From positions 140,772 through 204,771 of the forward strand of contig JAQUOD010000002.1 in assembly GCA_028717245.1 (NCBI GenBank): a DNA stretch of 64,000 nt, written 5' to 3'. Below, piece by piece: positions 1-64,000 of this stretch. The translations under genes and the position numbers were made by a program. Position 1 is the stretch's first letter; each line of letters opens with the position of its first letter. The stretch comes from Candidatus Omnitrophota bacterium. GTDB lineage: Bacteria; Omnitrophota; Gorgyraeia; Gygaellales; Profunditerraquicolaceae. The notes below the pieces were generated by a model. It had not been told where the DNA came from, did not search any database, and was given only the letters and a program-made list of their open reading frames with translations.

Positions 1-2
1 TA

Positions 3-3000
3 AGGGGTATAAGGCTTGAAGAAGATTACCTGGCGGTATTATCTGAATTACATAAGTTACATTTCAGCGATTTTGATACCCAACTTTTTACTGTAGAAGG
101 AAAGCATTATCAGGCGCACGAGAAACTCGGCGCGCATGTCGTTAAGACAGGAGACTGCGCCATAGGTACTTATTTTGCGGTATGGGCTCCTAATGCCCTG
201 GAAGTTTCAGTGATAGGTGATTTTAATAAATGGAACCCAACATCAAATTATATGTACCGGGTGAATTCAAACGGTATATGGGCGCTGTTTATCCCGGGGG
301 TCAAAGAAGGCGATCTCTATAAGTTTTCCGTCAAAGGGTGTGACGAGGTAATCCGTAAAAAGATTGACCCTTATGCGTTCTTTAATCAGTTTCCTACTAA
401 TGAACATCAACTTAGTAATGCATCGATTGTCGGGAGTTTGGGTTATTCTTGGAAGGATGATGCCTGGGTTAATGAGCGTTTATCTAATCAGGGGCCTGAT
501 AAGCCCATTTCCATTTATGAAGTCCATCTGGGTTCCTGGCAGCGCAAAAAAGAAGATAATAGTTGGTTGACTTATAGAGAGTTAGCAGAAAAGCTCGCAG
601 AATATGTTAAGGATATGGGATTTACTCATGTAGAGCTTCTCCCTGTCAGCGAACATCTCTTTTACGGTTCATGGGGATACCAGACAAGCGGCTGCTTTGC
701 TCCCAGTTCACGTTACGGCACGCCCCAGGATTTTATGTACCTGGTTGATTATCTCCATCAGAAGGGGATAGGCGTCATTATTGACTGGGTGCCGGCGCAC
801 TTTCCCAAAGATGAAGCTGGACTTGTAGCATTCGATGGCACAGAATTATATTCTCATAAAAATCCTTTAGAAGGGGAACATCCTGATTGGGGTACGCGGA
901 TATTTAATTATGGGCGTGCCGAGGTAAAGAGCTTCCTTATCAGCAATGCTCTTTTCTGGCTTAAAGAATACCATATTGACGGGTTACGGGTAGACGCGGT
1001 GGCATCAATGTTGTACCGCGATTATGGACGTAAAGAAGGAGAGTGGATTCCTAATAAAGATGGCGGGAGAGAGAATTTTGAGGTAGTAGCGTTCTTGAAA
1101 GAGCTCAACGAAGTAACCCATAGAGAGTGTCCGGCTATCCTGACCATTGCTGAAGAATCTACTGACTGGCAGGGAGTTTCGCGTCCCACAGATGGGGGAG
1201 GTTTAGGGTTTTCTCTGAAATGGGCAATGGGATGGATGCATGATACGTTAGAATATTTTAGACACGACCCTATACATAGACAGTACCATCAAAAAGAATT
1301 GACTTTTTATCCTTGGTATGCTTTTTCTGAGAATTTTACTTTAGTTTTATCTCACGATGAGGTAGTGCATGGTAAAGGCTCATTAATAGAAAAGATGCCC
1401 GGAGATTACTGGCAGAAATTTGCCAATTTGAGATTGCTCTTAGGCTTGATGTTTGCTATGCCCGGGAAAAAACTTTTATTTATGGGGGATGAGATTGGGC
1501 AACATAGAGAGTGGAACCATGACGGAAGCGTTGATTGGTATGTTCTCGATAAAAAAGACGAACATTCAAATATGCATAGAGGCGTACAGAATCTCGTAAA
1601 AGCCTTGAACCAATTATATCAAAGCGAACCGGCGCTTCACCAGCGTGATTTTGAATCTTCCGGTTTTGAATGGATTGATTTTAAGGATGCCAAACAAAGC
1701 GTAATCAGTTTTATCCGTAGAGGCAACAACCCTGACGAATCTGTTGTGGTAGTTTTCAATATGACTCCCGAGCCGCGATATAATTACCATATCGGCGTTC
1801 CTTGCGGAGGAGTTTGGCGCGAAGTTCTTAACAGCGATGCTAACGAGTATGGCGGTAGCGGTATGGGTAATCATGGGGTAGTAGATGCCACAAGTGAGCC
1901 GATGCACAATCGCCCCTATTCTTTAAATCTTACCTTGCCGCCCTTGGGAATGCTTATATTAAAAGTTAATAACCAAGCCTCCTCCGCCACTACAAAAGTA
2001 CAGGAGGATTCAAGAACTCCCCAGGATAGATTTAGAGAATTTTTAGGGACCAAACCAGAAGAATTTAATCTATGCGAGGCCTTAAAGCGATTTGGATTGA
2101 GTTTGGAAGAAGGAGTTGGTATTTTACAAAAGGTAAAATATGATTTTGGCGAGTATCTTGAAGTTTTGGACGAGAACGGAAAGTCAACCGGAAGAATGAA
2201 ACAGAGAGGCGCCATCCATGAGCAAGGCGATTGGCACAGGACAGCGCATATAATTATTATAAATAAGAAGGGTGAGGTTTTGCTTGGAGTTAGAGGCAAA
2301 AAAGCGCATAGTTCCCAGGGCAAGATTGATATATCCTGCGCCGGCCACGTTGCCATAGAAGACGGCAGGGATACTGCTTTTGAAGAAATCAAAGGCGAAT
2401 TAGTGATAGATAAAAATGAATTGTCCGAATTATCTGTTATCGGGCAGGAGAACGGATTCAAGAAGATAGGCGCTCTGCAACAGGAAGAAAAGATTGATGC
2501 CTGCGGGGTTTATTATTACCGGACAGCCGGGATAAATAAAGAATTTTCTACTCTTTATGTTGCCATAACAGATCTAACTGCCGATGAGATTAACGCGAGA
2601 TTACGCAAGCAAGGGGAAAATCGCGCGGTCGAAACAGTTTACTATGCCAATATAGAAAAAGAAGTTAAAGATCCAAACAAAGACTACAGTATCTATAGCA
2701 GCACTTTTAAGCAATATTTCTTAAATAGGGCAATATTGGATAAGATAATTGTTTTCACTAACGACGGCTCAGCGGACACCGCCTTAGAACAAGCTAAACA
2801 TAAGGCGTGGGGAATATATATTGAAATAAGAAAGCAAAATAAAGTTACATTCAAAGATGGCCGTGAATTCGAGGCTTTCGCCCATCAGATAGCCAATGAG
2901 GTGGGTGTAGAATTTGGATTAGATGCGAATCAGATAATAAAAGTTGCCCTTTTCTTAACTACTGCTTTCTTCCCGGGATGGGGCGGCCTGCCGGCACCAA

Positions 3001-6000
3001 TGCCTAATCCATCATATAAGAGCTTAGGATCCCTTGATTATAAGAAGCTTGTAGAACAGGCCTTAGGCGCCGGCACGTCACTAGAAACATTCGAAGGTAT
3101 TATGGCAATTCTAGAAAAGTTTGGAGATAGAATGATACGGGCTTATATTTTAACATACGCCAAATCCAAGTTGTCTAATAATGGAAGGCTCGTTGTCCAG
3201 ATAAGGGCGGAGGAAATTATACGTGCCATGGAAGCGCCTCATAAAAATAATAACAATGGCTATTATAATAGGAGAAAGAGAGAAGAAGAACGGCAAAGAA
3301 AAATACCTGATGTTATCGATAAAAAGGGTCTTCTTAGCAGAATGGTTGGCCGGTTGAAGAAAGCAAGCCCCGAAGAAACAGCGCAGATAAAGAAAAAATT
3401 AATTGAAGCCAGCAAAGATGATGCGGATGCGGTTATCGGTCCTGTTGTCGGCGCCTTTGTTGATCCTGAAATAAAATGTGCCGAAGAAATCCTCTTTGGT
3501 ATCCTGGATACAACCAAAGACCCGGCTAAAGTTTTCAATCGTGTTGTCCGCGCCTTGCATGAACGCAAAACAGATTCGGGTAAAACCCTATACCTCTGGC
3601 AGGGGCAGTGGTATGAGCCTACTCCGGAGGAAGCATTACAGCGGATAAGGCGCTTAGAAGAGTTTATTCGAAAAGCTGGTAAGCAGCATCCGGTAGAGGC
3701 CGGCAATGCGCTTGTCGGCGCATTGGCTGATTCTGACCCGCAGGCAGTGCTTTCAGCAGAAGAACTTCTTTTGGGTATAACAGAAGTATTCCCGGGAACA
3801 ACTGACAGGCAGCGTATCGTTATTTTTCTTCACTCTGTTAGAGTAGCTTTGGCAATAAGAATATTTACGAAGATAGCTAAAGAAAAGCCGTCGGAAGTTA
3901 AAGACGTACTGACCAGAATTTTCGAGGATAGGCATAATTCAATAAAGGCCAGAAACAGCGCCTTTGAAATCTTAAAGGCATTGAATGAAACGTCCATTCC
4001 GGCTGGCGCGATGAATGGTGGAATAGGGCAACAGCCGGTTGGCGCAAGCAACCCTACTCCCTTCTCCCGCCCTGTCTCTAAGGAAGCCCAGGAGCAGGCA
4101 GAGAAACTCTATGGCAAGAACTGGACATCTAAAGCGTTTACCCTTGATGACCTCCGGAATAATATTCTTGTCCAGGGGCTGACTAAAGATAATGCAGAAG
4201 GATTAATAAAGCAGATAAATGAAGTATCAGAAAACATCACTAAGACAGGCCCTCCGGAAGATTTAGCTAAAACCAAGGAAGCCTTAACGCAAATAAGGTT
4301 CTATCTCTCCAATGACACGGAAAAACTTGAGAAATACCCTGGAACAGATCTTCCTAATGTTGCCTCTTCCATAATTGATTCAAAAGAGGTTTATCTACAC
4401 GTTATAGGTTACTGGCAACAGCCCGACCAGCAAACAATTCTCCACCACGAAATCAAAAGCCACATCGCTGACAATGAGGCGGATGAAACTAAGGCGATGA
4501 AGGATACGCAGAGGTACTACCCCAGAGTAGTAAAGATTGAACCTTCTATACTTGATGTATCAGACGAGGAATTTGAAACCAAGGTTCGCCAAGCAGTGCT
4601 TGCCGGAGCAGACCAGCTACATACTGATTGGACGGATATTGAATTTACAAAACGGCCAACTGATATAGAGAATCTTACATCCAAGGTTAGATTCCTTAAG
4701 AAAAATTTTAACTTGCCGGTAGATGCCCATTTAATGGTGGTGGTAGATAAGCCCGAAGAGAATACCTATATTAACGCGGCTATCAATGCCGGCGCGGATA
4801 TTATTATTGTGCATTTTAAGGACGCCCATCGGGATTTAGAGCACCTTAAAGAGACTATCGCATATATTAAGTCAAAAGGCCGTAAGGTGGGCATAGCGCT
4901 TAAAATACCCGAACCCATTAAGGAAATAAAAGAGATTCTTCCCCAGATTGACACGGTCCTCTTATTGGCAGTAGACCCGGGTTATGGCGGGAGCCCATTT
5001 GATATAAGCGTATTGGGTAAAATTAAGAAACTAAGAAAGTTTATAGATGCAAAACACTTGAAGGTTGAAATTCAGGTAGATGGCGGCATTAGGCCCGCGA
5101 TTGCCGAAATAGTTTTTGATGCCGGAGCGGATATTTTAATTTCTGGTTCCGCCATATTTAAAGCAGAGGATATTTGTCAGGCCATTACGAACTTAAGAAT
5201 CTATTCGTCTAGAGAGCGCCTGATACGATATTTACGCCGTTACAAACCGGGCGCGGCAATACCTCTTCAAGAGGTTTCCCGGGCCATAGGTATTACACTT
5301 CAACAGATAGAGCCGCTTTTAGACGCCATTATTGATGAGCAGCCCGGTAAGTATATAGTTAAAAGGCAGGATGGCGGATATGCAGTTCCTCGCGGTTTAG
5401 GTTGTGCCTCGCCGAGAGAATTTGAAAACTCTGATAAGCAGCTACCTTATCGTGTTTTTACCGGAAGATATGCCCGGTATACAAATGTGGATACGACACA
5501 ATTTGAGCAGATTATATTAGGGTTATTTAAAGTCAAGGCGTTATCTGAGTTATCCCGGGAAGTCCAAAGAGAAGTATGGCGATTTAAACAGGCTTTACCC
5601 GAAATAGAAGATGTCCATTTTCAGGCAAGGGGTACCGCCGATATTATGGGAGGCGTATTGAATTGTGAAATTTGGGATCCCATGGTACCCCCAATTTTAC
5701 ATAAATATCAGTTAAAAGCAAGGTTAATCCGGCGTGAAAAAATGAAAATTCCCAGATGGGCGCTTAATGATTACCATCAATATACAATTACCGAAGTAGG
5801 CGGGCACGAACTTATTGTTAATGTTACAGCTGACCAATATGAGTTTAAAGATAGCGGCGCATTTGGGGCAGCCGCATATTATGACTTGGGCGTGGTGGTT
5901 ATACCGATAGAGGCGTTAGAAGATGGAACTTTATTTATGTATGCAACAGGCTTTCCCCGCGAAATACCTATGGAGGGAGTAAAAATTTCTTCTGATCCGA

Positions 6001-9000
6001 AAGACCGGGTCCAAGAGATTAGTCCTAATCTTATTGGTCCGCTTAGCATCGAACAGCAAAGAGACATCGTTGATTATGTCCTGCAAGAGGCGCAGCCGCA
6101 GATATCTTTTGACCAGGTTATTCCAGTGCGGGAAAAACAGGCTTATAAAAAATTATTTGCCAGATACGAAGGATATAAAGCGAGATTAGAAATAGACCAG
6201 ACTGTCCCGCTACCTAAATATTATTATGTATATTATGCTAATAATCCGGTAGGTGGTTTAAGAGTAAATTTAGAAAGTAGAAGTATTGATTCTAAATGGT
6301 TTGATGTAGGCACAAAAGGCGTCTTCTGTAATGATTATCTTCCCGCAATAGCTACTACAGGAAGGTTTGTCCCTGAATATGTCTGTGTGCTTATGGCCTT
6401 GCCTTCAGATATTGAATCGGCTGTAAGGCCAGAGATATGGGAGGTAATAGAAAATAAAGGGAATAATATCATTTTTCGTAAGGATGTGCCTTTTGATTAT
6501 AACCAAATAATACTTATAATAGACGAAGAGCGCATAGGCCGGGATGAACTTAATCAATTAAAGGAGTTCGTCGATAAATATAAGCTAACCCTCATCAGCC
6601 TTCAAGAGGCACAATTGGAGGCAGAACTGCTTTTTGAAGCGCGCAAACTCTACGACCGTGCCAGTCTCATTGCAGAAGGAAGGTTAACCTTAGATGAAAT
6701 CAGGATTTATGACAGGCCGGATAATATGGTTGAGTTTTATGAAGATTTACGGCCCGGAGATATAGTAGCACTTACCGATAACGAAGCGTATAGAGAAGCA
6801 TTCAAATTAAAAGTTTACGGCTATATTACCGAAGAAAGAGGAGATAAGTATGTGAATTTCTATCACCATCGCCTGGGTAGAATGCAAAGGAAGAAAATTG
6901 ATATTCCCGATAAGGTCTTGGGGAGGGATTATTCTCCTTGGTTTGGCATATATGCTACGGAGTATAAAAGTTATGACCTTTATCTAATCCGGCCTACTAA
7001 CGTGGTAATTCCCCTTGAGTTTTTATCTTATCTACATTTTTATGAAATCCTTGCTTCTGAGGAATATTCCTTGAAATTAAGCTTAACCCCTAAGTTACCC
7101 AGTAAGGGCATAAACTATTTAGATACCCTGTTTTCTCTACCTGAAGAGACGATAAGTGTGGCCTTAGAGTATTATAAAGAGGCAATAAGGATTATGGCGC
7201 TTCCTGAGCCCGAAGAGTATATTTACCGCCTGAGTCGTGAGCCTACTCCTAAAAACGTACGATTGCTATTACAAATTACCCGGATAATTCTTTATGAAAA
7301 AAGCCCTGATTTAGTACCTCAGGAAGTTATAAGCATGCTTCACAATGTAGCTGAATATAAAATTAAAGAAATTCCGTTTAGCTATAGAGATTGGGCTAGA
7401 TACATATTAGAGGCAATTGAAGGCAGAAGAAATGGGGGTACTGCTGGCTTTATGGATGATTCACTTCAGCCCTCCCTCGTGGCAAAGTACATTAAGGATA
7501 TAAAATATACTCCCTTACGGCTACTCTTGCAAGTATTCTTCGCGCCTGCCATTGTCCCCCATGAAATTGCGCATCTGCTCAGGGCTATTAAAAGGAAAGA
7601 ATTAAAGGGATTCAGGCCAAGGCATCTACTGGAAGGCATCCCTATCTTAAAAACCGGCCTGCCCATCTTGAGACTAGAAGGCTGGATTACCAATATCGTA
7701 TTGGCCGCTATATCTCTCATAGTATTATGCCATGCCCCTGCCTTAATTATTATCTGGATATTTCTTACCAACTTATTTCTCACCATATTTGAGCCATTAT
7801 TAAGTTTCAAAAATAATGAAGGCGATTTTATTTCGGAAAAAAAGAAAGGGCTTTCGAATCCATTTATTGCCGGCTGCCTGTTGCTTTTTATTCCGGTGGT
7901 TTCCGGATTTATCATAAATTCATGCAGTATTTTAAATATCGAATCTTACTTTTTCATAATTGGTTTAGTTTTATTAGTTGCGATTCTGGCGATTTTCATT
8001 CTTAATTACCCGGATAAATGGTGGTCGGATTTTAATGCCCCCTCCGCCAGAGAACACAAAACCCTTAATTTATATAAGAAACGCATTATGGAAACGGTCT
8101 TGCATTGGGCTGAAATGTTATTGCTATCCGACCAAAGTCCGCTTGTAGTACGTGGTGCCATCACAGACTTATCTGACTTCGTTGTTGAAAATAAAAATGA
8201 AATCGAATCCTCAGAGTTTATTAAGCGTTTAATTGAAGAAGTAAAGGATTTAGGTTGGCTTACCTATAATGCCATGGTTTCCGCCTTAGAAAAATTAGGC
8301 GCTACCAAAGAAGAGTGGTTGGATTTTTGCGAGATTAAAAATGTAAAAAGCATAGATAAGCTTACTTACAACGCCATAAAAGGCCTATTAGTAAAGTTAG
8401 GCGCTAACGAAGAACAGATGGCATATTTTTATAATCAGGCAAAAGCGGTTGGTTCAGATGCGCAAACCCGTCAAGCCGCTGAAGGATCATTGATAGAGAT
8501 TATCAATTCAACTTCTAATAATGGATTATTGCTGAGATTATTATCGTTAAATGAAGGGGAGGATGATTTTAAAGTTAACCGGGCTATACGTAGGGCGCTG
8601 GATTTGTTAGCAGCCCAGGCAGTACTCAAGCGAGGGTATCCTGAAGGGGCCATACCAGCCATATCAGAAGAACTCAAGAAATTACTCTCTGAAATAGGCC
8701 CTTCTTTGAGCCAAGGTTTAAGGCTAGAGAATACTGAACTATTAAAGGAAAATCTCCGGAAATTATGCTCATTAATTACTGAGAAAGGCCATATAAATGT
8801 TAATTCTCCCAGCCCATTGATTAGGCTTCTGGTGACCAGCCTGAATAAGGAAGATGTCTTTAAAGTAATAGACCAGGCTGTCTCCATTGAGAAGAAACGG
8901 GAATTAAAAAAGATTCTGGTAAGCTGTGTTGCAGTTTCCCAACTAACTTATATCATCTTAGCCTTATTGGGTCTTGAGGTAAAAGGCGTTATTGCGCCTA

Positions 9001-57000: not shown

Positions 57001-60000
57001 ATGTCTTCAGCTACGAGAAGGACGGCGAGATAATGCATACTCTCATTGATTCAGGCGATAGGCAGCATAGGCCACGCATATTAAGATTATTGAGAGAAAA
57101 CGGAGTTGAGCCGGCCAATATTGAGAAGATTATTTTGACCCACCACCATTTCGACCATAGCGGTTTGGTTAATGTTCTCTGTTTGGTTTCTGGTGCGAGG
57201 GCCTTGGTTCATCCTAATTTTAAAGACATAGTTGAAGGCAGAATAGTTGATTATGAGGTTACGGCGAAAGCGGCAAGTAGGCTTAAGGTAGAATATTTGT
57301 TTTCCGCTGGCTACCAAAGAAATATAGGCGGGGTTGACTTCCCTGCTTTTAAGGCGGTTGATATCGGAGAAGGGGTAACTTTAGAGATAATCGGCCTTCC
57401 TAAAGCTGAATTGTTCCATACCCTTAACCAACTCTGCTGTATATTTACACCTAATGCCCCTTTTAAGCCCGCGGATGAGATGATTTTTTCCGGAGACCTC
57501 TGGTTGAAGGAGCCCCCGGGTATTCCAAAAAATATTTCATTTTATTCACCGCACATTTTTGAATGGATAAAAGAACTCAGGCGTGGCTTTGATTTTCGCC
57601 CGCAGGACCGAAGAGCAAAGGATGCGCTTAAGAAAGGTTTTAGCCTTATCGAAGTAAAGCCCGGCCACGGCGGACCATTTTTAGGCACTACAATAATCGG
57701 CACGCTGCTTGCCCGCCGCGACATCTTAGTAAAATTGGGTTTTGGCGAAAATGCGGATAAAGCCATATTGGATAAAGAAGATATGGTTCTCAAGATAAAG
57801 GAATTAAAAGAAAAGGCCTACCAGGGTTTTATTAAAGAATTAAAATTCTGGCAGAGGCCTCTTATAGAAACAGGATGGTCCGGTTATAGCGTTGAGGAGA
57901 TATCCGGCTTTTTACTGCGGGTATACCAGGAGCAAAGCGGCGGGGGAGAATTAGTCGGAGAAGACAGAAAGGAAAGGAGAATTGACCTTAAGGATAAATT
58001 ATGGAGATTAAAAAGCGATGAGCAGCAGCTAGTAGAGTTACGCCAAATAGCCGAATCCTCATTAGCAAAAATTGAGGGGCTATTAACGCCGCGCAAACCT
58101 GATTTTAAATCCGATGAGGTTGCAGAAGATTGTAATCCCTTTAATTCGCTGGGTGGTAGAGCACATACACACCATCCGGAAAATAGTTTGTTTCCTGACC
58201 CAGTTGGCTTTGACCGCTGGGGTAATCCTTCGCTGCGCTATCGGGATGGAGCAAGAAAAAGAGGGCCAAGGCAGGATGATATGGAGCCATGTCTTGAAGT
58301 AACAATTAGAATTGACGAGGAATTTCGAAAGAAGGCGCAGGAGATCCTTGGCGAGGGTTATAAGAGAAGGGCTAAGCAACCGCTTAACCTTAACCCCCCT
58401 GAATTAGAGATGCTCAGATTTATTATCGATGGCGACAAGGCCAAAACCAAAGAAATCCAGTCTAAATCAGATAGTTCTCTTTCAAGATACCTGAAAGGCA
58501 TATTGGAAGATTTGAGAACAAATAACCGTATCCACGCAGTAATATTAGGTATAGCTTTAGGCGCAACCGGAGCCGAGGAAATCAAGTTTTTCATTAAAAA
58601 AGAGCCTCAGCGGGAATTGACTAAGCATGAGCAAGAGATACTGATACTGATTGCCAGAGGATACAGCAGGAAAATGATAGCCGCTAAATTAGGTATCCGC
58701 CAGCATAGAGTTAAAATAGAAATTAGAAAAATATGCGATGATTTTGGTATTTATATTAAAGCAGACAGCTCTGCGTCGCAAATGCAAGCAGTATTAATTG
58801 CGCTCTGGAAGGGACTGTTTAAAGATAAGGATTTAATTAAAGAGATAGGCTCAGAAGAAAAACCGGAGCAGCCATCGGTGAATGAGCCGCAGTTGGAAGA
58901 GGAATTTAAAAGAAAAATCTCGCCTGAATTAGCCGAATCACTTTACGCACTGACAGGCAGGGGAAACAATATCTGGGAGGGCGCAATAAACAAATTGACG
59001 CACGGACAAGTTGTTCAATTAAACAAGATACTCAGTTCACCCGGCCTGGTTGATCCTTTATTAATTCATCTTTATTTAGTCAGCTATTTTAAAAGAAATC
59101 GCAATACTAACGATCAGGGCTTGGCATTAATATTATTGGAATATCTCGTTGATAATTTTAATAACGAAGAGGAATTATTAGGACAGGCCGGAGTAAATAA
59201 GGAATATTTCCAGCAACTAAAGAAGCTATCCCGGTTTGAGCAATGGTCAAGAATGATATGCGGCAGCGGTAAAAAGCGTTATAGCCTTGATGAAATCGCC
59301 ACCAGAAGCGGGGTGGATAAAGATTTTATTGAAGCCAATAAAGATATTATTCAAAGGCATATCTTATGGATGCAGAAGCTTGACTGGGTAGCTGCATGCA
59401 GAGAAAGGATCCAAGACGATGGTAAAGCCAAGGGATGGACTAAAGAGCAGCTGCGTCAAAAACTAGGGGTTCCTTATGATAGGGTTATAGGGTTGGCATG
59501 GACAGGGGGGATATGGGCCGTTAATGTGCGCAAGGCCGCTGACATATTTGAACGAGAAGCAGCTTTCTTTATGTACGGTGGCGCAGAAAATAACCTGCTG
59601 GAAAGGTTGCCCTTTAACAGGCGGATCGAGTTCTTTAGGTATAAGGAAGGCTGGAGCCAGGAAGAGCTCGCATCGCAATGCCGGGTTGCCACTATGGAAG
59701 TAAAGCGCTGGGAGAATGGCGTATTCATCCCTGCGCCTGAAATGATGTTGCGCTTAGCCGAGATATTCAACGTAGAAGTAAGCGAGCTTATGTATGGTTT
59801 AAAACATGCCGAAGCGCTGAAAGGATTACCTTTCTGCAAACAGATTGAATTGTTAAGGTATGAAAAGGGATGGACCCAGAAGGAGTTAGCGTTAAAGTGC
59901 GCAGTTGGCACTACGACCGTAAGATATTGGGAATATGGAATGAGTTCCCCTAATCTTCAGTACAGGCAAAGGTTAGTGAATATTTTAGGGGAAGAAATCA

Positions 60001-63000
60001 TCGATGGCGAAGAATTCAATAGCGACGGAACGCGTAAAATGCCCGATAAAGATACGGGGAGGGATGAGATTGAAGAAATCATTAAGTTAGGCGAGAAGGG
60101 GATAATCGCTTTACATAAAATGCTCAGGCCCGAAAGCAAAGGCGGTATCAGCCAAAATCAGGCAGGGCTTAGAAAATACATTTGGGAGAAGATAATCGCT
60201 TATTCTTTCGGGGGCGCGAAAAATATCCGTTTTATCAATAAAGATAAATTGCCTCGCGGTGCCGCATATGAGCGCTATAAAGGCTTAGGGCATATAGTTT
60301 TAAAAGGCCGCCTTCCGCCTCGTAGCGGCAGTTTAGACGCAGGGAGGCATTGGGTTGAATTTGAGGAATACGCGGATGTCGGCGCCGGAGCAGATTATTT
60401 ATTAGAAATGAACGACGGAATTCCGGTTAGGATATTCTTTTCTAAAGATTGCTCTGCCTTTGAGCTCTTACCTATTATTGACAATAAGGCAGGGCAGGTT
60501 ATCAGGGCCCACCGCGGAAAAATAATGAGGGTTGAATTCGCTAAATATGGATATGTCACTACATATACATACTCAACCCGCCTAGAAGGTCTCGTTGAAA
60601 TTGGCGGGGGCAGGCCGATGTATAACGGCCAGATGCCTAAGAAAAATAGGCCCTGGACAAAATTCAAGGATCATCCTGATGAAAAGATAAGGTTAACAGT
60701 CAAAGGAGGTTTAGTTGTAAGATGCACTTCCTTAGAATCAGATTTGGATGAAGAGTTCTTTTTAATCTGGCATAAACCAACGCAGCGTTATACGACTATC
60801 TTTACGCGGTCAAATGCGGACGAATTTAACCAATTAGGCCCGGATTACGAAGTTTATCGTAGTTTAAACAAGAATGGTTCTTTATATGCAGGGGCCGAAG
60901 AACCGGTAATGAAATTTAACCCCAAATACGCTTATAAAACGGCCAGAGCGTATGATATCCGTAATCCCACAGGTAAAAAGGCCTTTGTTGTAGGAGCAGA
61001 GGTGGTAGAAGGAGACAAGGTTTTAGCCAGAAAGAGCCTTCATTTGATTTATGAGGTCCCTGAGAATAGGCCCGAAAAATCTTTTGCCAAAGCAGATATA
61101 TTCGCTGCCTTTGAAAAGTGGAGTGAGGATAAATTATTACGTCCGGATGGAACAAAATTAGGCACTTATATTATTGCTGAGATTAAAACTGATAAGAAAG
61201 GTTTTTTAAGGGCAGATGGGTATTGGAGCGTGTTTAGCCATTATCCCGAGGCAGAAGTTGAGGCAAAGGTTATAAACGGGGACAAGTGTTTTGTAAAGTT
61301 TATCAAAGATAAACAAGGCAATCCTATTTTGAATATAGAAGGTAAACCATTAATTATAGATATCAGGCAGGATATAAAAAGTCAGATGAAAGGCATACGC
61401 ATTAAGCCCGTTATTGAGCCAGGAAAACAAATGCCGGATAAATCAGCGAAAAGAGAAGATACGCCGGAAGAGAAGGGAAGCCCATCGTCTGAAGAAGTGA
61501 AAATCCGGATGCAGAGGATCCCTGAGTTAAAAGCCTATCCAAGTCTGATGGTAAAATATGCATTACAAAGAGATGGGACTTCTGATGAGGTATTGTTAAA
61601 AATAATAAGGCTGCTTAATAGTATAAGGGGGGCCTTAATTAAAGAACAAGGCTGTGAGGAGCAGTTGGCTACTATATTGGCATGTTGTTGCGATGAAGAC
61701 CCCAAGAAAGCAATTGCAATGTTTATTAACGGGATTACTTTTGAAGAGGCGTATAAATTAGCCGAAACTAAAATTATGCCCGCTCTCGGTTCTGCAGGCG
61801 TAGGAACTGGCAGCCAATTAACGAGCCATAAAGTTGTGAGAGAAGAGCTTAAAGCCGGTAGGCCCCATAATCCTGCGCAACCAGTAGAGAGTAAGCCGGC
61901 CGCGAAAGAAGAGCCCAAAGTGCCTGTTTCTGGTAGCGTTGTTCAGTTAGAAGAAGAAAAAAGCTCGCCAAGGCAGCCAAAGATTGGTGATACGGTTAGC
62001 TACAATGGTTACGGCAGAGGAGTAGTTACCAGAATTGGAAATGATGAACAATACGGGCTCTCAGTCAGGGTTGAATTTGAGAATGTAAATGTAGGAGTAA
62101 AAAATTTAATCTGGGAAATTGCTGCAAGAAAAATTACCTTTGAACATACGGAGGTAAAAGCCGCGGATAACACAGGGAATGTAAGTAATGGCGGTAAAAT
62201 CCCTCCTGGGCCTCATCCGGCGAGTCCGTCAAGTGTGGCATCCCTGGAAAGATTGAAAGACGATATCGCGCGCATAAATGCCGCATACGCGCAAGGCACC
62301 GAAAAACCGGAAGAAGAGGAAGAGGAAATCGCCTTGCAGGAAGATGATGAGGATAATAAAGCGCCAAAAGATAAGCCAGTAGCTGATAAAACGCTAATCG
62401 AAGATTGCGTCCAATCTTTTTCTGAATTAACCGGCATCAAATCGGAAACATGGCGAAGAGCGATAGGATGGCTCACGCCCAAAGACATAACTGAATTAAA
62501 TAAAATTATGCTTGGCTCAGTTGTAGTTTTTGGCCATCTGAAGGTTTCTTTCTTACTTTTTCAATTCCTCCAGGACATAGAAAATGATGATTGGAGTTCG
62601 TGCCTCATGGCCTTACGTTATCTTGCTGTGGGGGCATTAAAGGAGGGGCTTATTGAAGAGGAAGACCGGCAGGATTTTGAAATGTTCAAGAAGCTATGCT
62701 TATGGGAAAAAAATGAGAAAATAATCAGCACAGAGAAAAGCAAAAGGTATACTACTACCCAAATTGCCCAGATGAGCGGGGTTAATGAAAATTATGTAAA
62801 CCGGTATAAGGACGCGGCCCGCAGGTTTATCTTGTGGATGCAGCGGATGGGTTTGGATAAGGTTTCCGGGATAACAGCAGGAACAGGGGCAGGATTAGCA
62901 TTATTATCTAAGAGTGAATTAGATGCATTAAAATTAGTTGCCCAAGGCTATGCTACTTTAGATATTGCAAGATCTTTAGGCTTAACGAAGAAAACTGTCC

Positions 63001-63998
63001 AGGGTTACTTGAGTAGAGCATTGGAAAAGTTACAAGTTCATAGCCGTAAAGAGGCAGTAAAAATATTCTTGGCAGGAGAGGCATCCTTAGGGAAAGAGGG
63101 CCTACCGGCCGCATCCGAAATCAAGCCCGGAGTAGCAGAGAATAAGGAACTCGGAGTCAACTTCCTTACCGATGGCACAGATATGATAAGTTCGGGAATT
63201 GGAATCGAACGCCCGTCATCGTGGCCGCCTTGGGGTATGGTCACGAGAAAATTAGAAAGCGGAATCGAGCCGTTAGGCGGGGCAGGGCAGAAAGATTTTA
63301 GTAGCTTTAAGATTGACCCCAGGCCGGTAGAATACGGGTTAAGGCACCCTATATTTGTTGCCTATGATATGGCGCAAAAGGAAGTGGTGAATCCTAACAA
63401 CGAAGAGAAAGTCGCCCTTTATGGTTGCTCCGGGGCTGACTACTCAAGCATAATGCTCTCCACTAATGCCACCGAGATTTATTTGGTTGATAGGACACCT
63501 ATTAATATACCAAGGCTGCGGGAATTATTTGCTTATTGGGATGAGTTAAAGCAAGGCGATAAAGTTAAGGATTACCTTCAATTTGAACAAACTCGGAATT
63601 ATGCAAGAGGCAGCGAAGGCGGAATGGCAAACCTCGAGCTGAAATTAGTTCTTCAGTTACAGGCTATGGGGGTAAAAAAAGAAGATATGGAGGAGCCCAT
63701 TGATAATTTGGATGGTGCAGTTACGCTCAAATTTAAATGGGCATATTTCGGGCAAAAAATAAAGCCCTATGTTATTACTTATATAGAAGCGGACATTATT
63801 AATCCTGATAATTATCCGCAAAGGCCGAACGAAGTTTTAAGAAAAGGAATTGATATTTATTATCAGAAAGCAGCTTGCGAGATGACAGGAAGATACTACA
63901 GGTATTTAGTATCTATTGCCTCAAGCATTAAAGAAGGCGGCTTGCTGATGACAGATGATATTAGCCTTGAAGAGCTGAAAGCTGTAAATCCCGAGCCA
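3..63998 (+). CDS. Fragment of one giant multidomain ORF of at least 21,332 codons, open at both window edges with no start or stop in the window. Predicted to be a membrane-tethered mosaic or polyprotein-like protein.
   Basis: A codon-by-codon walk of the frame starting at position 3 found no TAA, TAG or TGA across the whole window. Recognisable protein motifs appear in this same frame at both ends (GlgB at the 5' end, LuxR HTH at the 3' end) and throughout. I confirmed the frame at spot checks near 20403, 28563, 46542 and 62883. The other five frames carry only short ORFs, as in the supplied track. The absence of any listed ORF in this frame fits a frame that is never closed by a stop. Confidence 0.9.
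57..1977 (+). other. glgB: Domain: 1,4-alpha-glucan (glycogen) branching enzyme, essentially full length (CBM48 N-domain, GH13 catalytic barrel, C-terminal beta domain).
   Basis: Translation shows GKHYQAHEKLGAHVV, then FAVWAPNALEVSVIGDFNKWN (CBM48). GH13 region I is GVIIDWVPAHF, region II GLRVDAVASM (nucleophile Asp), region III AILTIAEEST (acid/base Glu), region IV LSHDEVVHGKGSL. The C-terminus ends ...LPPLGMLILKVN, where free-standing GlgB proteins normally stop, but the frame continues. Confidence 0.9.
2190..2720 (+). other. Domain: Nudix / isopentenyl-diphosphate isomerase type 1-like fold.
   Basis: HRTAHIIIINKKGEVLLGVRGKKAHSSQGKIDISCAGHVAIEDGRDTAFEEIKGEL resembles the IDI/Nudix core (HRAFSVFLFN.KGELLLQQR...PG..TNSCCSHP...E...ELGI). 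Confidence 0.45.
4590..5200 (+). other. Domain: ribulose-phosphate 3-epimerase-like TIM barrel. The first metal-binding motif looks degenerate.
   Basis: LHTDWTDIEF (compare LHvDvMDGHF), then LPVDAHLMVVV...AGADIIIVHFKD...KVGIALKIPEPIKEI...IDTVLLLAVDPGYGGSPFD...KVEIQVDGGI...AGADILISGSAIFKA matches the RPE pattern (dvHLMv...aGAd.itvH.E...GlalnP.T...vDlvLlMsVnPGFGGQ.F...ieVDGG...aGad.lVaGSaiF). Confidence 0.55.
5760..5960 (+). other. Recurrent domain of unknown function, copy A (TADQ[YF]E motif).
   Basis: ITEVGGHELIVNVTADQYEFKDSGAFGAAAYYDLGVVVIPIEALEDGTLFMY aligns with a second copy about 50 kb downstream, VRCRIAGYDFILDITADQFEIRDLTGRYQQLGIVVLPSVIAQRNPARFWMY. Confidence 0.4.
7540..8030 (+). other. 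HExxH metalloprotease-like motif followed by a multi-helix hydrophobic (membrane) segment.
   Basis: FAPAIVPHEIAHLLRAI (cat gaa att gcg cat at about 7558-7572) is followed by hydrophobic stretches GWITNIVLAAISLIVLCHAPALIIIWIFLTNLFLTIF, NPFIAGCLLLFIPVVSGFIINSC and YFFIIGLVLLVAILAIFILNY. Confidence 0.4.
9270..9570 (+). repeat. TPR repeat array encoded by near-identical 102-nt tandem DNA units.
   Basis: Protein: NNLGNTYAKLGRYAEAIAEYQAALRLNPNYAAAH / NNLGGTYFILGQYAEAIAEHQAALRLNPNYAAAH / NNLGRIYFGLGRYPEAIDSLARAVNLRPE. DNA 9331-9407 and 9433-9509 are near-identical (atgctgaggcaatagcagaa[t/c]atcaagcggccttaaggctcaatcctaactatgctgcagcccacaacaacctcggt). The string aacaacctcggt recurs at about 9296, 9398 and 9500. 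Confidence 0.85.
12600..14000 (+). other. PEP-utilizing-enzyme-like module: phosphohistidine swivel domain plus PEP/pyruvate-binding TIM barrel signatures (PPDK / PEP synthase / Enzyme I family).
   Basis: TKGGATVTLQGGPGAHAIIIATQFGYCVVGG then LPLTVDGNKGLVY matches the swivel-domain signature GGxTSHAAIIARelGIPaVVG...vtvDG.tG.vy, with the His retained. Downstream ISHGTNDQTQ matches the barrel motif SiGTNDLtQ, and LCGEAQNS matches the conserved MCGE region. A possible degenerate second swivel-like stretch (ASGMVITGQIEDNSPLLYKARQLGIPTMLVEE) sits near 14330-14450. Confidence 0.5.
16130..18680 (+). other. Long array of PBS-lyase-type HEAT repeats.
   Basis: About 30-residue repeats of the form D.d..VR..AaeALgkiG.paa...Li.aLkD.d..V, e.g. 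DSHSDVRSDAADVLEKL, DNDSSVRAQAAEAMGDMGLPAVLLYLMKALKDSDIYVCYKAAEALGKIGPAAAPAVSALIEAL, SYAAQALGEIGIASMPVIDALTEAVEDSNSDVRAKACTALEKL, DSDSNVSSKAAEALLKIGLP, DSDVRSRAADALIKMG. Confidence 0.7.
17297..18217 (+). repeat. Near-identical tandem DNA duplication (unit about 480 nt, 160 aa) inside the HEAT array.
   Basis: 17561-17733 and 18041-18217 are almost identical (...cgttcctacgcagcccaagc[t/c]ttaggagaaatcggcatagcctctatgcctgttatcgatgccttgacggaagccgtagaagatagtaacagcgatgtccgcgccaaggcctgcacagccttagaaaaactcaatgccttaaccgtagaattaaagataaaaagatacatt). gcagccgaagccttaggaaaaatcgggcctgcggctgca occurs at about 17465 and again at about 17945, 480 nt apart. Confidence 0.85.
20090..20540 (+). other. Domain: archaemetzincin-like zinc metalloprotease (peptidase M54-type HEXXHXXGXXXCX4CXM...CXXC signature).
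   Basis: ...ITDADITGYRDGELRRYLFGRSW...VMSVNRPY...LKNALHELGHAFGLRHCDNPGCVMQFSETVEALDKTGLEFCPSCRS. cac gaa tta ggg cat is at 20403-20417 in the giant frame. The His-Glu-x-x-His-x-x-Gly pattern, the third His, two Cys pairs and the Met-turn are all present with archaemetzincin spacing. Confidence 0.65.
21690..22100 (+). other. Domain: HD metal-dependent phosphohydrolase.
   Basis: ERASHHGLSHSSRMWEKAKILIERL...DIEVLIAAVFLHDIATAY...PQHGEISAQ...ILAVLEAIRLHDAY...ILFDVDEIDAFG shows the H...HD...H...H...D...D residue series typical of HD domains. Confidence 0.6.
22540..22670 (+). other. Predicted transmembrane hairpin.
   Basis: PKIIIAIALAAVGATLAAVFLPGYEKEIAVIAPLLMLLGIIKS: two hydrophobic helices separated by a short polar turn. 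Confidence 0.5.
24290..24500 (+). other. Predicted transmembrane hairpin.
   Basis: LPTMTGLMGPLAAVTIILSMVLAQYILGSGF...AGILPDLSRLGLAGLLLPPLVLLGMAMSG. Confidence 0.5.
25080..25640 (+). other. Macro-like (ADP-ribose-binding/processing) module, copy 1 of a tandem pair.
   Basis: GITKADLGEIPSDAIIIGLDSNMTDQTGFADKAIRIIASKLFF...PGWKYAISVITHSPE...KASSVTITIFKAINDKTSAKWMLSAIEEF fits the macro pattern (gDIt...DAIVNaANs.L.gGgGV.gAI...aG...yviHtVgP...SiAfPaIstG). It is paralogous to copy 2. Confidence 0.4.
26390..26940 (+). other. Macro-like module, copy 2.
   Basis: IGNLEIAIVREDIGKIKSDAVIVCLNSDMKADTGTAEKIVATVADTDYY...PGWQYVINTITHQSK...RLRSVTIPVIKLSNDETSANWLVTPVGNFIRDKKPRNLEKITIV aligns residue for residue with copy 1 (PGWKYAISVITHSPE...SVTITIFKAINDKTSAKWMLSAIEEFARDSKPRNLKRIII). 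Confidence 0.4.
27320..28720 (+). other. Domain: enolase-like (N-terminal capping domain plus C-terminal barrel, with enolase signature residues).
   Basis: N-domain: IKDIYVFKVQ...GGISKGKSEPETHPSIDQAIEFFNKNV...RFSYIGAELSVGISMICSIAFAERLGVPL (compare lGANAILaVSlAaakAaA...gvPLY). Barrel: YALDIASSEMY (DvAASEfY), ISVEDWADESKLEHW (sIEDPFdqdDWeaW), LQKPNQSAEEL (IKvNQIGtlTE), VFSHRSTRPE (SHRSGETED). The metal-ligand Asp/Glu/Asp and the Lys/His positions appear retained. The N-domain SGASTG loop is replaced by GGISKG. Confidence 0.6.
29000..30070 (+). other. Domain: alkaline-phosphatase-superfamily phosphomutase-like metalloenzyme (cofactor-independent phosphoglycerate mutase / phosphopentomutase-like).
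   Basis: ISIITIGQDGMP (compare vLiilDGlgd), LILYGDHGSVDDTSQPGHSF (compare tADHGnDPT..gt.Ht), DTQADIAVTVLHILGIAKPEEMTGKSLL (compare DiaPTiLdLlGlekP.eMtGksLl). Confidence 0.5.
31040..31230 (+). other. Predicted transmembrane segment (2-3 helices).
   Basis: GIALLNMLLVLFGLGIVVSLLLGVF...LNWFVPMSGVGISALIFLVGVL. Confidence 0.5.
33390..33690 (+). other. Domain: GNAT N-acetyltransferase.
   Basis: VGQRYYQFEFAGDGQPPLVRFNFIVVDEAYRRQGIGRILMDLSVEKALALGCTE carries the GNAT motif A (V..xxRrqGiG..Ll). Confidence 0.55.
35950..36480 (+). other. Predicted multi-helix membrane segment.
   Basis: AMVSAIVTIILAAFGFRLGL...IVGALFYATSCIV...LFCFSALPLYILCPFISI...ILQWLLSFALIFLFISELPLAIGAGVGFIFVGMAYSGLFGL. Confidence 0.5.
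37380..37780 (+). other. Domain: class I SAM-dependent methyltransferase.
   Basis: Motif I LRFMDLGTGDGGF, an acidic motif II (GIGVNDN), then KSIDIITINAPCL ... SGLVLIRL. Confidence 0.5.
38370..39040 (+). other. Domain: HAD-like hydrolase fold with an atypical motif I (DxH instead of DxD).
   Basis: LAIFDVHGVLLQP (motif I-like), IPIVITSGSEH (motif II Ser/Thr), GKSRYRD (motif III Lys), FFNDWVEGIKAVKESGG (motif IV-like). Confidence 0.35.
40740..41130 (+). other. Domain: class I SAM-dependent methyltransferase.
   Basis: GKVWVDVGPGAGGTLEIAEGL (motif I), RIVAIEKS (motif II), AVDTIIFCSILHEIF (motif IV region), SSGGRILIRDW. Confidence 0.5.
42250..42600 (+). other. Predicted multi-helix membrane segment immediately upstream of the LuxR array.
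   Basis: CILLPILAGLGAGGVVGAAVFAVSSWVMPVILVGIAALAITWIFG...LLILFSLPIISLLLLYLTGHIL...FITPFASGAPILLSLALPIILP. Confidence 0.5.
42600..43700 (+). other. Tandem array of five LuxR/GerE-type helix-turn-helix DNA-binding domains (about 80-aa period).
   Basis: (1) TLKRQILTLAAQGYGNKKIAQEIGLSAVEVNKAMHA; (2) NPLTQRETLVLKLVAQGKSNQGISEVLTISKTAVHGHISCIYSALRKIG; (3) RKVRVVELIAEGKNYKEISIKLTMPIGQVRSEVSKLYQLSGV; (4) LKPREIDTLNLMAQGKTNSEIAEGLQIGLATIEDYVGTIFGKLKV; (5) LTNREMEVLISAADGLSEEEISEKIGIQKRKVREYLKSARRALG. All fit LT.RE.EVL.l.a.G.sNkEIA..L.iS..TV..H...i..KL. Confidence 0.7.
45330..45800 (+). other. Domain: class I SAM-dependent methyltransferase.
   Basis: SILELGSGLGYNAFYAYYQGAKEIRGLDIS (motifs I and II), then NNSFDMVNATFILHRLSKEGQEFAIEEMLRVIKANGLV (motifs IV and V region). 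Confidence 0.5.
46540..47110 (+). other. Domain: radical SAM core (CxxxCxxC cluster-binding motif).
   Basis: VSVTEGCSVQCDYCMRAAG spans 46542 onward in frame. It has the canonical CX3CX2C with an aromatic residue before the third Cys. Confidence 0.45.
47480..47640 (+). other. Domain: minimal nucleotidyltransferase (polymerase-beta-like) fold.
   Basis: GIVQHYYLAGSLARGDFKIPPKDVDFAISL fits the hG[GS]...D.D motif. Confidence 0.45.
54420..54580 (+). other. Internal lipoprotein-signal-peptide-like segment (basic n-region, hydrophobic core, LxxC lipobox-like SAC) followed by a Ser/Thr/Pro-rich linker. It leads into the TPR array.
   Basis: VKNVVRPNLPQGLISLVLILFLSVSLFFSAC KPVGPPAVSNNPTSTPPVVSTPNEPEISL. 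An in-frame ATG lies upstream at 54307, but there is no stop codon anywhere upstream in frame. Confidence 0.4.
54580..55150 (+). other. TPR repeat array.
   Basis: ...NAKRYFEKAIELDPNFAEAYANIGTLYGESTEYEMAIEYLNKAVYLDPNSAVAYANLGKAW...AVKYLTRAIELDPRYKDAYYDLAIAYRIIKDYDRAEGVLLKLIENRPDDANAYKNLGAVYVKKGDF...AIEYFQKAADLDPN. Confidence 0.8.
55650..55860 (+). other. Recurrent domain of unknown function, copy B (TADQ[YF]E motif).
   Basis: HHFVRCRIAGYDFILDITADQFEIRDLTGRYQQLGIVVLPSVIAQRNPARFWMY, see copy A at 5760-5960. Confidence 0.4.
57030..57710 (+). other. Domain: metallo-beta-lactamase fold.
   Basis: MHTLIDSGDRQ (motif 1 Asp), IILTHHHFDHSG (HxHxDH), ARALVHP, MIFSGDLWL (Asp), EVKPGHGGPF (His). Confidence 0.6.
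58390..58750 (+). other. Two LuxR/GerE-type HTH domains.
   Basis: LNPPELEMLRFIIDGDKAKTKEIQSKSDSSLSRYLKGILEDL and LTKHEQEILILIARGYSRKMIAAKLGIRQHRVKIEIRKICDDFGI. Confidence 0.6.
59610..60000 (+). other. Two tandem XRE (Cro/C1)-type HTH domains.
   Basis: RRIEFFRYKEGWSQEELASQCRVATMEVKRWENGVFIPAPEMMLRLAEIFNVEVSELM and KQIELLRYEKGWTQKELALKCAVGTTTVRYWEYGMSSPNLQYRQRLVNILG. Confidence 0.65.
62890..63060 (+). other. LuxR/GerE-type HTH domain.
   Basis: LSKSELDALKLVAQGYATLDIARSLGLTKKTVQGYLSRALEKLQVHSRKEAVKIFL, read in frame from 62883. Confidence 0.7.
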
Positions 63999-64000
63999 TT

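Follow-up and report, generated by a model that had tools for sequence, protein, structure and literature searches.

The stretch of DNA analysed here (the window) comprises the 64,000 nucleotides from position 140,772 to 204,771 of contig JAQUOD010000002.1, which belongs to the assembly GCA_028717245.1 of a Candidatus Omnitrophota bacterium, and it is occupied over its whole length by one stop-free reading frame. The 21,332 codons of the third frame of the forward strand, starting at positions 3, 6, 9 and so forth, include no TAA, TAG or TGA codon, as had already been noticed in a preceding reading of the letters alone (the sequence-only reading). The other five frames contain between 656 and 1,973 stop codons each and have a longest open run of 218 codons, in line with their earlier description as being broken into short open reading frames (ORFs). 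With a per-codon stop probability of 0.064, as calculated from the base composition, a stop-free run of this length is expected by chance with a probability of about 10^-616. The coding signature is alike in all sixteen 4-kb blocks of the window, with a G+C content of about 0.50 at the first codon position (GC1) and about 0.35 at the second (GC2) and a G content of about 0.33 at the first (G1), and the purine-any-pyrimidine (RNY) bias is highest in this frame in every block. Frame 1 of the minus strand has markedly fewer stop codons (656) than the other non-coding frames, which is expected because it is antisense to the RNY-biased frame. The sequence consists of A, C, G and T only, with an N count of zero; A occurs exactly 20,000 times, presumably by coincidence, and methionine contributes a low share of 1.62% to the residues of the translation. 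These data support the view that a single very long gene runs through the whole window and continues beyond both of its ends.

The integrity of this frame was assessed from several sides. A Shine-Dalgarno (SD)-like motif is present at 61% of the real gene starts in the Omnitrophota locus L081 (39% with a strong motif), and it precedes 8.4% of the 346 in-frame ATG codons of the window (1.4% strong) as compared to 11.8% of all codons (3.3% strong). Promoter-like and terminator-like sites were detected at the level of shuffled sequences in the 60 kb that were scanned. Since neither internal SD-led starts nor promoters nor terminators occur in excess, the frame is most simply read as a single uninterrupted coding sequence, and a hidden operon was ruled out on the same grounds. 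Likewise, neither a tRNA gene nor a match to an Rfam family was found in the window, which excludes embedded RNA genes. The tetranucleotide profiles of eight 8-kb blocks are correlated with pairwise coefficients of r = 0.87-0.96, and the profile of the whole window is closest to that of L081 (r = 0.94); this homogeneous composition argues against a join between genomes, so that a chimeric origin was rejected. Direct repeats (at least 40 nt, 14-nt seed) are confined to the 17.1-18.6 kb region of an array of HEAT repeats and to a duplication among TPR repeats at positions 9294-9497. They take up about 2 kb of the 64 kb, none being reported in the other 62 kb or so, and every spacing is a multiple of three and thus in frame. 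A repeat-driven artefact was ruled out, as the repeats are few, in frame and restricted to these two places. Two HEAT segments of 196 nt each (17556-17751 and 18036-18231) are 96% identical at the DNA level and lie 480 nt apart in frame, which suggests a recent duplication; this pair is the one spot where a short-read assembly might have miscounted the copies.

Modules were placed on the translation by Pfam matches at a level of E <= 1e-3, and helix-turn-helix (HTH) units additionally by a local profile search. About 16 distinct domain types were above the threshold, with HEAT_2 and GerE reaching the highest copy numbers of seven each, and the recognised modules cover about 30% of the residues, as estimated from the Pfam coordinates. 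The positions of the modules and of selected membrane segments are compiled in Table 1. Both the GlgB domain at the left edge and the LuxR-type HTH close to the right edge (residues 20967-21021 in the Pfam match) that the sequence-only reading had proposed were recovered. The conserved-looking sequence that it had noticed behind the latter (residues 21050 to 21332) gave no significant family match. The GlgB module aligns over its full length with a solved GlgB (767 bits) and has the motifs DWVPAHF, GLRVDAV, AEEST and LSHDEV intact, which we take to be the four GH13 motifs; the module thus represents a GH13 enzyme in which the region of the catalytic triad is intact. An alignment of the ribulose-phosphate 3-epimerase (RPE) module with 1rpx shows that H-x-D, D-x-H, PGxGG and DGG are preserved, presumably as the metal- and phosphate-binding motifs of this family, and the divergent enolase retains the aligned positions that we assign to metal ligands and catalysis. 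At the sequence level, the GlgB, epimerase and enolase modules look constrained.

Table 1. Coordinates of the reading frame, modules and membrane segments in the window
Feature	Residues (aa)	Nucleotides	Strand	Basis
Stop-free reading frame, 21,332 codons, internal fragment open at both window ends		3..63998	+	stop count, coding signal
GlgB module: CBM48, GH13 catalytic and C-terminal domain	31-655	93..1967	+	Pfam
NUDIX/IDI-like module, weak	~733-830	2199..2492	+	sub-cutoff Pfam, BLAST
Ribulose-phosphate 3-epimerase module	1511-1719	4533..5159	+	Pfam E=1.1e-40, full profile
Three-helix hydrophobic cluster, preceded by HEIAH motif (aa 2520)	2565-2667	7695..8003	+	hydropathy
TPR repeats with 102-nt in-frame tandem duplication (9294-9497)	3094-3198	9282..9596	+	Pfam, repeat scan
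Enlarged PPDK/PEP-synthase-like module, phospho-histidine motif GAHAII	~3379-5160	10137..15482	+	PPDK_N, PEP-utilizers
HEAT-repeat array, in-frame DNA repeats up to 96% identical	~5650-6230	16950..18692	+	HEAT_2, 7 stretches, E=6.7e-69
Module A, conserved domain of unknown function, adjoins HEAT array	6250-6660	18750..19982	+	stand-alone relatives
Peptidase M54 (archaemetzincin-like), HELGH motif	6703-6843	20109..20531	+	Pfam E=1.1e-21
HD phosphohydrolase module	7245-7345	21735..22037	+	Pfam
Old internal duplication, HEAT-like and Macro-like module	8189-8540, 8603-8978	24567..26936	+	copies 30-39% identical
Divergent enolase module, begins at FGPHP motif 20 aa after a transmembrane hairpin	9073-9610	27219..28832	+	Pfam
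iPGM-like (cofactor-independent phosphoglycerate mutase-like) module	9659-10342	28977..31028	+	iPGM_N, Metalloenzyme
GNAT acetyltransferase; CheR-type methyltransferase	11148-11229; 11375-11557	33444..34673	+	Pfam
SAM methyltransferase; HAD hydrolase; second methyltransferase	12461-12581; 12795-12978; 13589-13653	37383..40961	+	Pfam
Four-helix hydrophobic cluster	14094-14195	42282..42587	+	hydropathy
Five tandem LuxR/GerE-type HTH units	14208-14571	42624..43715	+	GerE E=1.7e-36; profile units E=2.6e-13 to 2.1e-20
Further methyltransferase	15192		+	Pfam
Helix ending LFFSAC; Pro/Ser/Thr linker; TPR; helix; RGGKKKRKEK	18145-18163 (helix); 18197-18383 (TPR); 18412-18426 (helix)	54435..55280	+	Pfam, hydropathy, charge
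Metallo-beta-lactamase-fold module	19012-19090	57036..57272	+	Pfam
LuxR-type HTH; two XRE-type HTH_3 units	19539-19583; ~19873-19995	58617..59987	+	Pfam, profile search
LuxR/GerE-type HTH	20961-21025	62883..63077	+	Pfam, profile search

Several of the remaining assignments are weaker. The Pfam match of the NUDIX-like stretch to NUDIX (E = 0.0084, 16.6 bits) is below the curated cutoff of 21.1, that to IDI2 has an E-value of 0.5, and a single-sequence AlphaFold2 prediction resulted in an unusable model (pLDDT 37). By BLAST, residues 621 to 828 match three stretches of the Omnitrophota locus L001 (E = 3e-9 to 1e-7), the first of which overlaps with the Pfam NUDIX match of that locus. In the old internal duplication, the second copy has a Macro match (E = 0.002) below the curated cutoff. 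The methyltransferases of the window belong to the families CheR, Methyltransf_31/23, Methyltransf_25 (two copies) and Methyltransf_11. Additionally, two distant pairs of internal paralogues of unknown function were observed, each with 27-30% identity: residues 1816-1968 pair with 18445-18599, and residues 19642-19793 with 20801-20949, a LuxR-type HTH following each copy of the latter pair. The motif HExxH is present at residues 2520, 5307, 6801, 6962 and 12753 (nucleotides 7560, 15921, 20403, 20886 and 38259), one of these sites being located in the recognised M54 peptidase, and HExxxH is present three times against an expectation of 0.38.

A hydropathy scan of the translation yielded 32 candidate helices that form about 17-18 clusters, mostly hairpin pairs, between the modules. 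For each of the seemingly lone helices (residues 7516, 14879, 15990 and 16447), a weaker partner helix follows at a distance of 5-10 residues downstream. As the helices are mostly arranged in hairpins, the chain would come back to the same side of the membrane each time. Lysine and arginine together have a density of 0.193 in the flanks of five clean hairpins and of 0.070 in their loops, with 0.135 overall, so that by the positive-inside rule the large modules should face the cytoplasm. From this simple topology model, we infer that the enzyme and HTH modules would be exposed on the membrane's cytoplasmic side. The segment from residue 18145 to 18426 reads as a single large external loop of about 250 residues that exposes a TPR domain, and its first helix resembles, in its sequence, a lipoprotein signal peptide. 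The whole segment from LFFSAC to RGGKKKRKEK has the appearance of an N-terminus left over from a lipoprotein that was formerly separate, and it could represent an external loop or a processing site.

The HTH units amount to nine, comprising seven of the LuxR/GerE type and two of the XRE type, and the five-unit LuxR array directly follows the four-helix hydrophobic cluster. A sample of 33 other large proteins contained no LuxR-type HTH unit, and the main texts of West-Roberts et al. (2023) and of Nielsen and Lui (2026), which describe the known giant proteins, mention neither LuxR- nor XRE-type units. Neither a coupling by HTH units nor the features of self-processing are discussed in these main texts. 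It is conceivable, if unlikely, that one polypeptide forms a physical link between the membrane, central-carbon enzymes and the chromosome, or performs a membrane-based regulation of genes, and that it may also release its parts by self-processing, by means of its scattered zincin-like HExxH modules and internal signal-peptide-like sites.

The relatives of the individual modules were searched in three collections: residues 1750-2950 were compared with protein clusters, the GlgB module with the species representatives of GTDB, where the best identity was 60%, and the enolase module with JGI metagenomes, where it was 61%. The GlgB, enolase and PPDK-like (pyruvate phosphate dikinase-like) modules all have Omnitrophota proteins as their closest relatives. 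The two best matches of GlgB (57-60% identity) are contigs of Omnitrophota metagenome-assembled genomes (MAGs), and GlgB is part of a stop-free frame that extends over the whole 21.9-kb locus L001, which also specifies NUDIX, GT5, GT1 and GH94 domains, and over the whole 5-kb contig L002, both from Omnitrophota. A further locus, L045 (CAYHZK010000021.1, positions 2-11886, labelled uncultured Planctomycetales), consists of one open frame over its entire 11.9 kb that encodes SLOG/LOG-like, Sigma70_r2, CofD and GlgB domains. This locus represents a giant-ORF fragment from outside the Omnitrophota or else a mis-binned contig. The remaining 77 GlgB loci, one of them from Omnitrophota, contain an ordinary stand-alone glgB gene. 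None of these loci qualified as a collinear orthologue, since L001, L002 and L045 share only GlgB with the window, plus the weak NUDIX-like matches in the case of L001, and are not collinear outside of GlgB.

Omnitrophota glycolytic fusion proteins with 3,600-4,248 residues contain enolase modules that share 61-67% identity with that of the window. The fusions P0001 to P0005 have only enolase in common with the window and were rejected as collinear orthologues as well. Among them, P0002 (GCA_026387335.1), with the order GAPDH-PGK-TIM-enolase, is a complete gene in a housekeeping context. P0001 from NCBI (4,248 aa, labelled Bacteroidales bacterium) fills its whole contig of 12,745 bp and contains iPGM followed by enolase, an order reversed with respect to the window, and its enolase is 67% identical to that of the window; the label is probably a binning error. 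Moreover, the metagenome contig L083 carries the same type of enolase as a stand-alone ORF of 616 residues, and the module starts with the FGPHP motif in every context compared, that is, in the window, the fusions and L083. Over 93% of the query, the PPDK-like module shares 46-48% identity with stand-alone proteins that have 2,170-2,637 residues and include proteins of the Omnitrophota species Ca. Orphnella occulta. All of the stand-alone PPDK-like proteins P0006 to P0013 begin like a signal anchor with M-A-R-x-I-N-K-F-L-S-Y-L-I-I-I-A-F-L-S-T-S-T-N, and their ATP- and phosphoenolpyruvate (PEP)-dependent enzyme core has twice the usual size; if this start represents a cleaved signal peptide, the location of the PPDK-like enzyme would be puzzling.

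An exhaustive search with residues 6250-7449 revealed the same pattern: 144 of the 150 hits listed match at one stretch only, and none of the 150 is collinear over most of the query. Stand-alone relatives of module A comprise 427-566 residues with 38-54% identity; several of them combine HEAT repeats and module A in the order of the window, and others combine transmembrane (TM) helices and module A. For each module tested, relatives exist elsewhere as stand-alone proteins or in other fusions, with sharp shared boundaries and in a shuffled order. Because the modules are found elsewhere as free genes with matching boundaries, an origin by gene fusion and shuffling seems likely, and the gene appears to be a unique concatenation of portable modules that were joined end to end.

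Genes of this kind are well documented in the Omnitrophota, and the window is a further example. ORFs of more than 20 kb were found in 77 of 116 Velamenicoccia genomes and also in other classes of the phylum (Seymour et al. 2023, PMC10066038), so that the earlier statement on the rarity of such genes holds for bacteria in general but not within the Omnitrophota, where they are common. The ORF of Ca. Velamenicoccus archaeovorus encodes 39,678 aa with 42 TM helices, and its expression is backed by peptides (PMC10066038). Proteins of up to 85,804 aa have been described, the terms being 'large' from 10,000 aa and 'giant' from 30,000 aa (West-Roberts et al. 2023, bioRxiv 10.1101/2023.11.21.568195), and a later survey put the number of proteins that reach 10 kaa or more at 3,650, with up to 147,155 aa (Nielsen and Lui 2026, bioRxiv 10.64898/2026.06.07.730766). 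The window, with 21,332 codons and 32 candidate TM helices, exceeds the size of more than 20 kb or at least 10,000 aa and displays the numerous helices of this group. The term giant gene used in the sequence-only reading applies with a restriction, as the at least 21,332 aa visible here make the protein 'large' but not yet 'giant' in the sense of West-Roberts et al. The proposed membership in the Omnitrophota class was otherwise strengthened by the relatives, the domain content and the periodic TM segments.

Two described types are closest to the window. Proteins of the 'multi-enzyme metabolic cluster' (Class 1) are anchored in the membrane, TM residues making up about 2%, and have largely unique sequences (bioRxiv 10.64898/2026.06.07.730766). 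The window is like this class in that many Pfam families tile one chain with none being dominant, in its central-carbon enzymes (GlgB, RPE, PPDK-like, enolase and iPGM) along with four methyltransferase matches and GNAT, HAD, HD and HEAT/TPR modules, and in its membrane anchoring with TM segments of about 2% of the residues and a unique sequence despite the common domain repertoire. NUDIX is also among the class content, to which the sub-cutoff match in the window would correspond. The five-unit tandem LuxR array, absent from the 33 large proteins sampled, sets the window apart. Archaeovorins are defined by glycosyl transferase (GT), methyltransferase, glycosyl hydrolase (GH), peptidase and NUDIX domains and often contain HEAT, TPR, glycolytic and PPDK domains (bioRxiv 10.1101/2023.11.21.568195). 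With this type, whose type sequence comes from Ca. Velamenicoccus archaeovorus LiM and has 39,678 aa, the window has in common HEAT and TPR repeats, methyltransferases, a PPDK-like module, glycolytic enzymes and TM helices; a glycosyl hydrolase is present as the GH13 domain of GlgB and a peptidase as M54, and the sub-cutoff NUDIX-like stretch would probably add a NUDIX module. Moreover, the GlgB module is 60% identical to that of L001, a giant-ORF fragment that has the complete Archaeovorin set of GT5, GT1, NUDIX and GH domains. An N-terminal signal peptide with a C39 or S8 peptidase is a further feature of the type, but the N-terminus of the present protein is located outside the window. No GT family (GT5, GT1) was found at E <= 1e-3 in the 21,332 aa of the window, and the Pfam search of the window detected no SecA-DEAD-like, C39 or S8 domain, although a divergent SecA DEAD-like domain is present in most full-length giants (West-Roberts et al. 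2023). These absences are not decisive because the gene is incomplete and the domains may be located outside the window, as exemplified by the GTs in L001. On the basis of its sequence, the window thus shows the Class 1 features that were tested and most of the Archaeovorin features.

Other known systems are more distant. The Omnitrophota glycolytic fusions of 3.6-4.2 kaa, such as P0002, resemble the window in the divergent enolase (61-67% identity), its N-terminal boundary and short linkers, whereas their length is smaller by a factor of five or more, internal TM helices are few or missing, the partner enzymes differ, and the similarity is restricted to enolase. The megasynthases of nonribosomal peptides and polyketides are likewise very long multi-domain proteins encoded by a single ORF, but condensation, adenylation, ketosynthase, acyltransferase and carrier domains are missing from the window. 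The same is true for the Ig-like, cadherin, RTX, dockerin and TSP3 arrays of repeat-rich giant adhesins (Chlorobium chlorochromatii, RTX-type), and no match to PF00404 or PF18884, the families used to recognise dockerin-type giants, was present in the window.

We consider it likely, with good confidence, that the window shows 21,332 or more codons from the interior of a single, real and very long gene of Omnitrophota or a close relative of the Planctomycetes-Verrucomicrobia-Chlamydiae (PVC) group. This gene would belong to the Archaeovorin or 'multi-enzyme metabolic cluster' type, would have been fused from separate genes and would encode a membrane-stapled product. Several points weigh against this interpretation. 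About 70% of the residues, as estimated from the Pfam coordinates, are without a significant Pfam match, and a word-indexed protein search with residues 1750-2950 (1,201 aa) found no relative among 5.8 billion protein clusters. The window's own sequence was not found in this protein set, in the GTDB representatives or in the JGI metagenomes, and the frame ends outside the window. With respect to the taxonomic assignment, which is based on three modules and on the composition, the window contains no phylogenetic marker, and GlgB proteins of other phyla are nearly as similar (59-60%). The topology is based on a simple hydropathy scan and on five clean hairpins only, and the cytoplasmic placement is contestable because the stand-alone PPDK-like relatives start like signal peptides and because most domains of giant proteins were predicted to be extracellular (West-Roberts et al. 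2023, bioRxiv 10.1101/2023.11.21.568195). Finally, expression of the gene is a prediction from its sequence.

A variant of this explanation, which is possible but doubtful, regards the product as a polyprotein that is translated once and then cut by M54 or other HExxH stretches, by signal peptidases at LFFSAC (residue 18163), or by both. The five HExxH motifs compare with 0.39-0.49 expected, none of 300 local shuffles yielded more than three, and control motifs were at or near expectation. One instance belongs to a bona fide M54 peptidase, the HEARH region has a weak match to the zinc peptidase family DUF5700 (E = 0.047), the internal lipoprotein-signal-like segment offers a site, stand-alone proteins end where the modules have their boundaries, and cleavage by C39 or S8 peptidases has been proposed for Archaeovorins (West-Roberts et al. 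2023, bioRxiv 10.1101/2023.11.21.568195). This has to be set against the facts that the statistic is post hoc, as the motif was spotted by eye first, that no homology between the HExxH regions was detected (none at E <= 1e-4), that the 33 other large proteins show no clear enrichment of the motif (five instances against 2.5 expected, in a set partly selected for M54), and that the window has no C39 or S8 domain and no known cleavage site. Rather improbable is a location of most of the polypeptide outside the cell, as an extracellular coat or predation organ that attaches to prey and degrades its surface polymers. This is the published view for V. archaeovorus and the Archaeovorins, with peptides three-fold up in attached cells, and it would accommodate the HEAT and TPR scaffolds, the GH13 module and the signal-peptide-like starts of the stand-alone PPDK-like relatives and of the fusion P0002. 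Nevertheless, the modules of the window use cytoplasmic substrates (ATP/PEP, phospho-sugars, S-adenosylmethionine, acetyl-CoA) or, in the case of the nine HTH units, bind DNA, the helices form hairpins with K/R-rich flanks, and the Pfam search detected no adhesin, dockerin, lectin or lytic transglycosylase domain in the window.

An artefact of assembly or curation, in which a chimeric join, collapsed repeats or a frame-restoring polishing connected several genes, is very unlikely. Assemblies of such genes do need curation (West-Roberts et al. 2023), but errors usually break frames and seldom create them, and the chance calculation given above speaks for itself; the homogeneous composition, the 62 kb or so devoid of direct repeats, the module boundaries lacking SD-led starts and the independent MAG contigs with the same phenomenon also argue against it. 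The succession of unrelated enzyme domains over 64 kb without a stop codon might additionally recall an artificial concatenation of coding sequences from which the stop codons were removed, such as a phylogenomic supermatrix or a synthetic construct. We regard this as extremely improbable, given that the modules have no methionine or other start codon at their beginnings and are joined by linkers and TM hairpins, that about 70% orphan sequence would be an unlikely choice for a supermatrix, that codon and tetranucleotide usage are uniform, and that natural MAG contigs have the same architecture.

According to the preferred interpretation as a fused and membrane-stapled multi-enzyme gene, once separate and often membrane-anchored genes would have been fused end to end and shuffled. 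The frame encodes some 25 or more globular modules in a row, with short linkers and about 17 clusters of hydrophobic helices in between. The product would be made as a single polypeptide, and its insertion into the cytoplasmic membrane would take place during translation. The hairpins would bring the chain back each time, leaving the enzyme and HTH modules in the cytoplasm as predicted by the positive-inside rule and one TPR module exposed outside. In this way, enzymes of glycogen branching, the pentose phosphate pathway and lower glycolysis (iPGM, enolase and the PPDK-like enzyme) might be held at the membrane in a fixed stoichiometry, the modifying enzymes and scaffolds being kept alongside, and a later cleavage into smaller products is possible. 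In this respect, the window differs from the Archaeovorins as seen by West-Roberts et al., who locate most domains extracellularly, since its pattern of hairpins and charges speaks for the cytoplasmic side.

Taken alone, the window is a clean 64-kb addition to the known membrane-threaded multi-enzyme giants of the Omnitrophota and leaves the picture of the field unchanged. Its hairpin and charge pattern suggests an alternative to the prevailing view of an extracellular coat, at least for the metabolic type. The junctions between the modules are concrete enough to ask whether the product stays whole or is cut, and the boundary-for-boundary matches to free genes and smaller fusions can be regarded as direct evidence that the giants were built by end-to-end fusion and shuffling.

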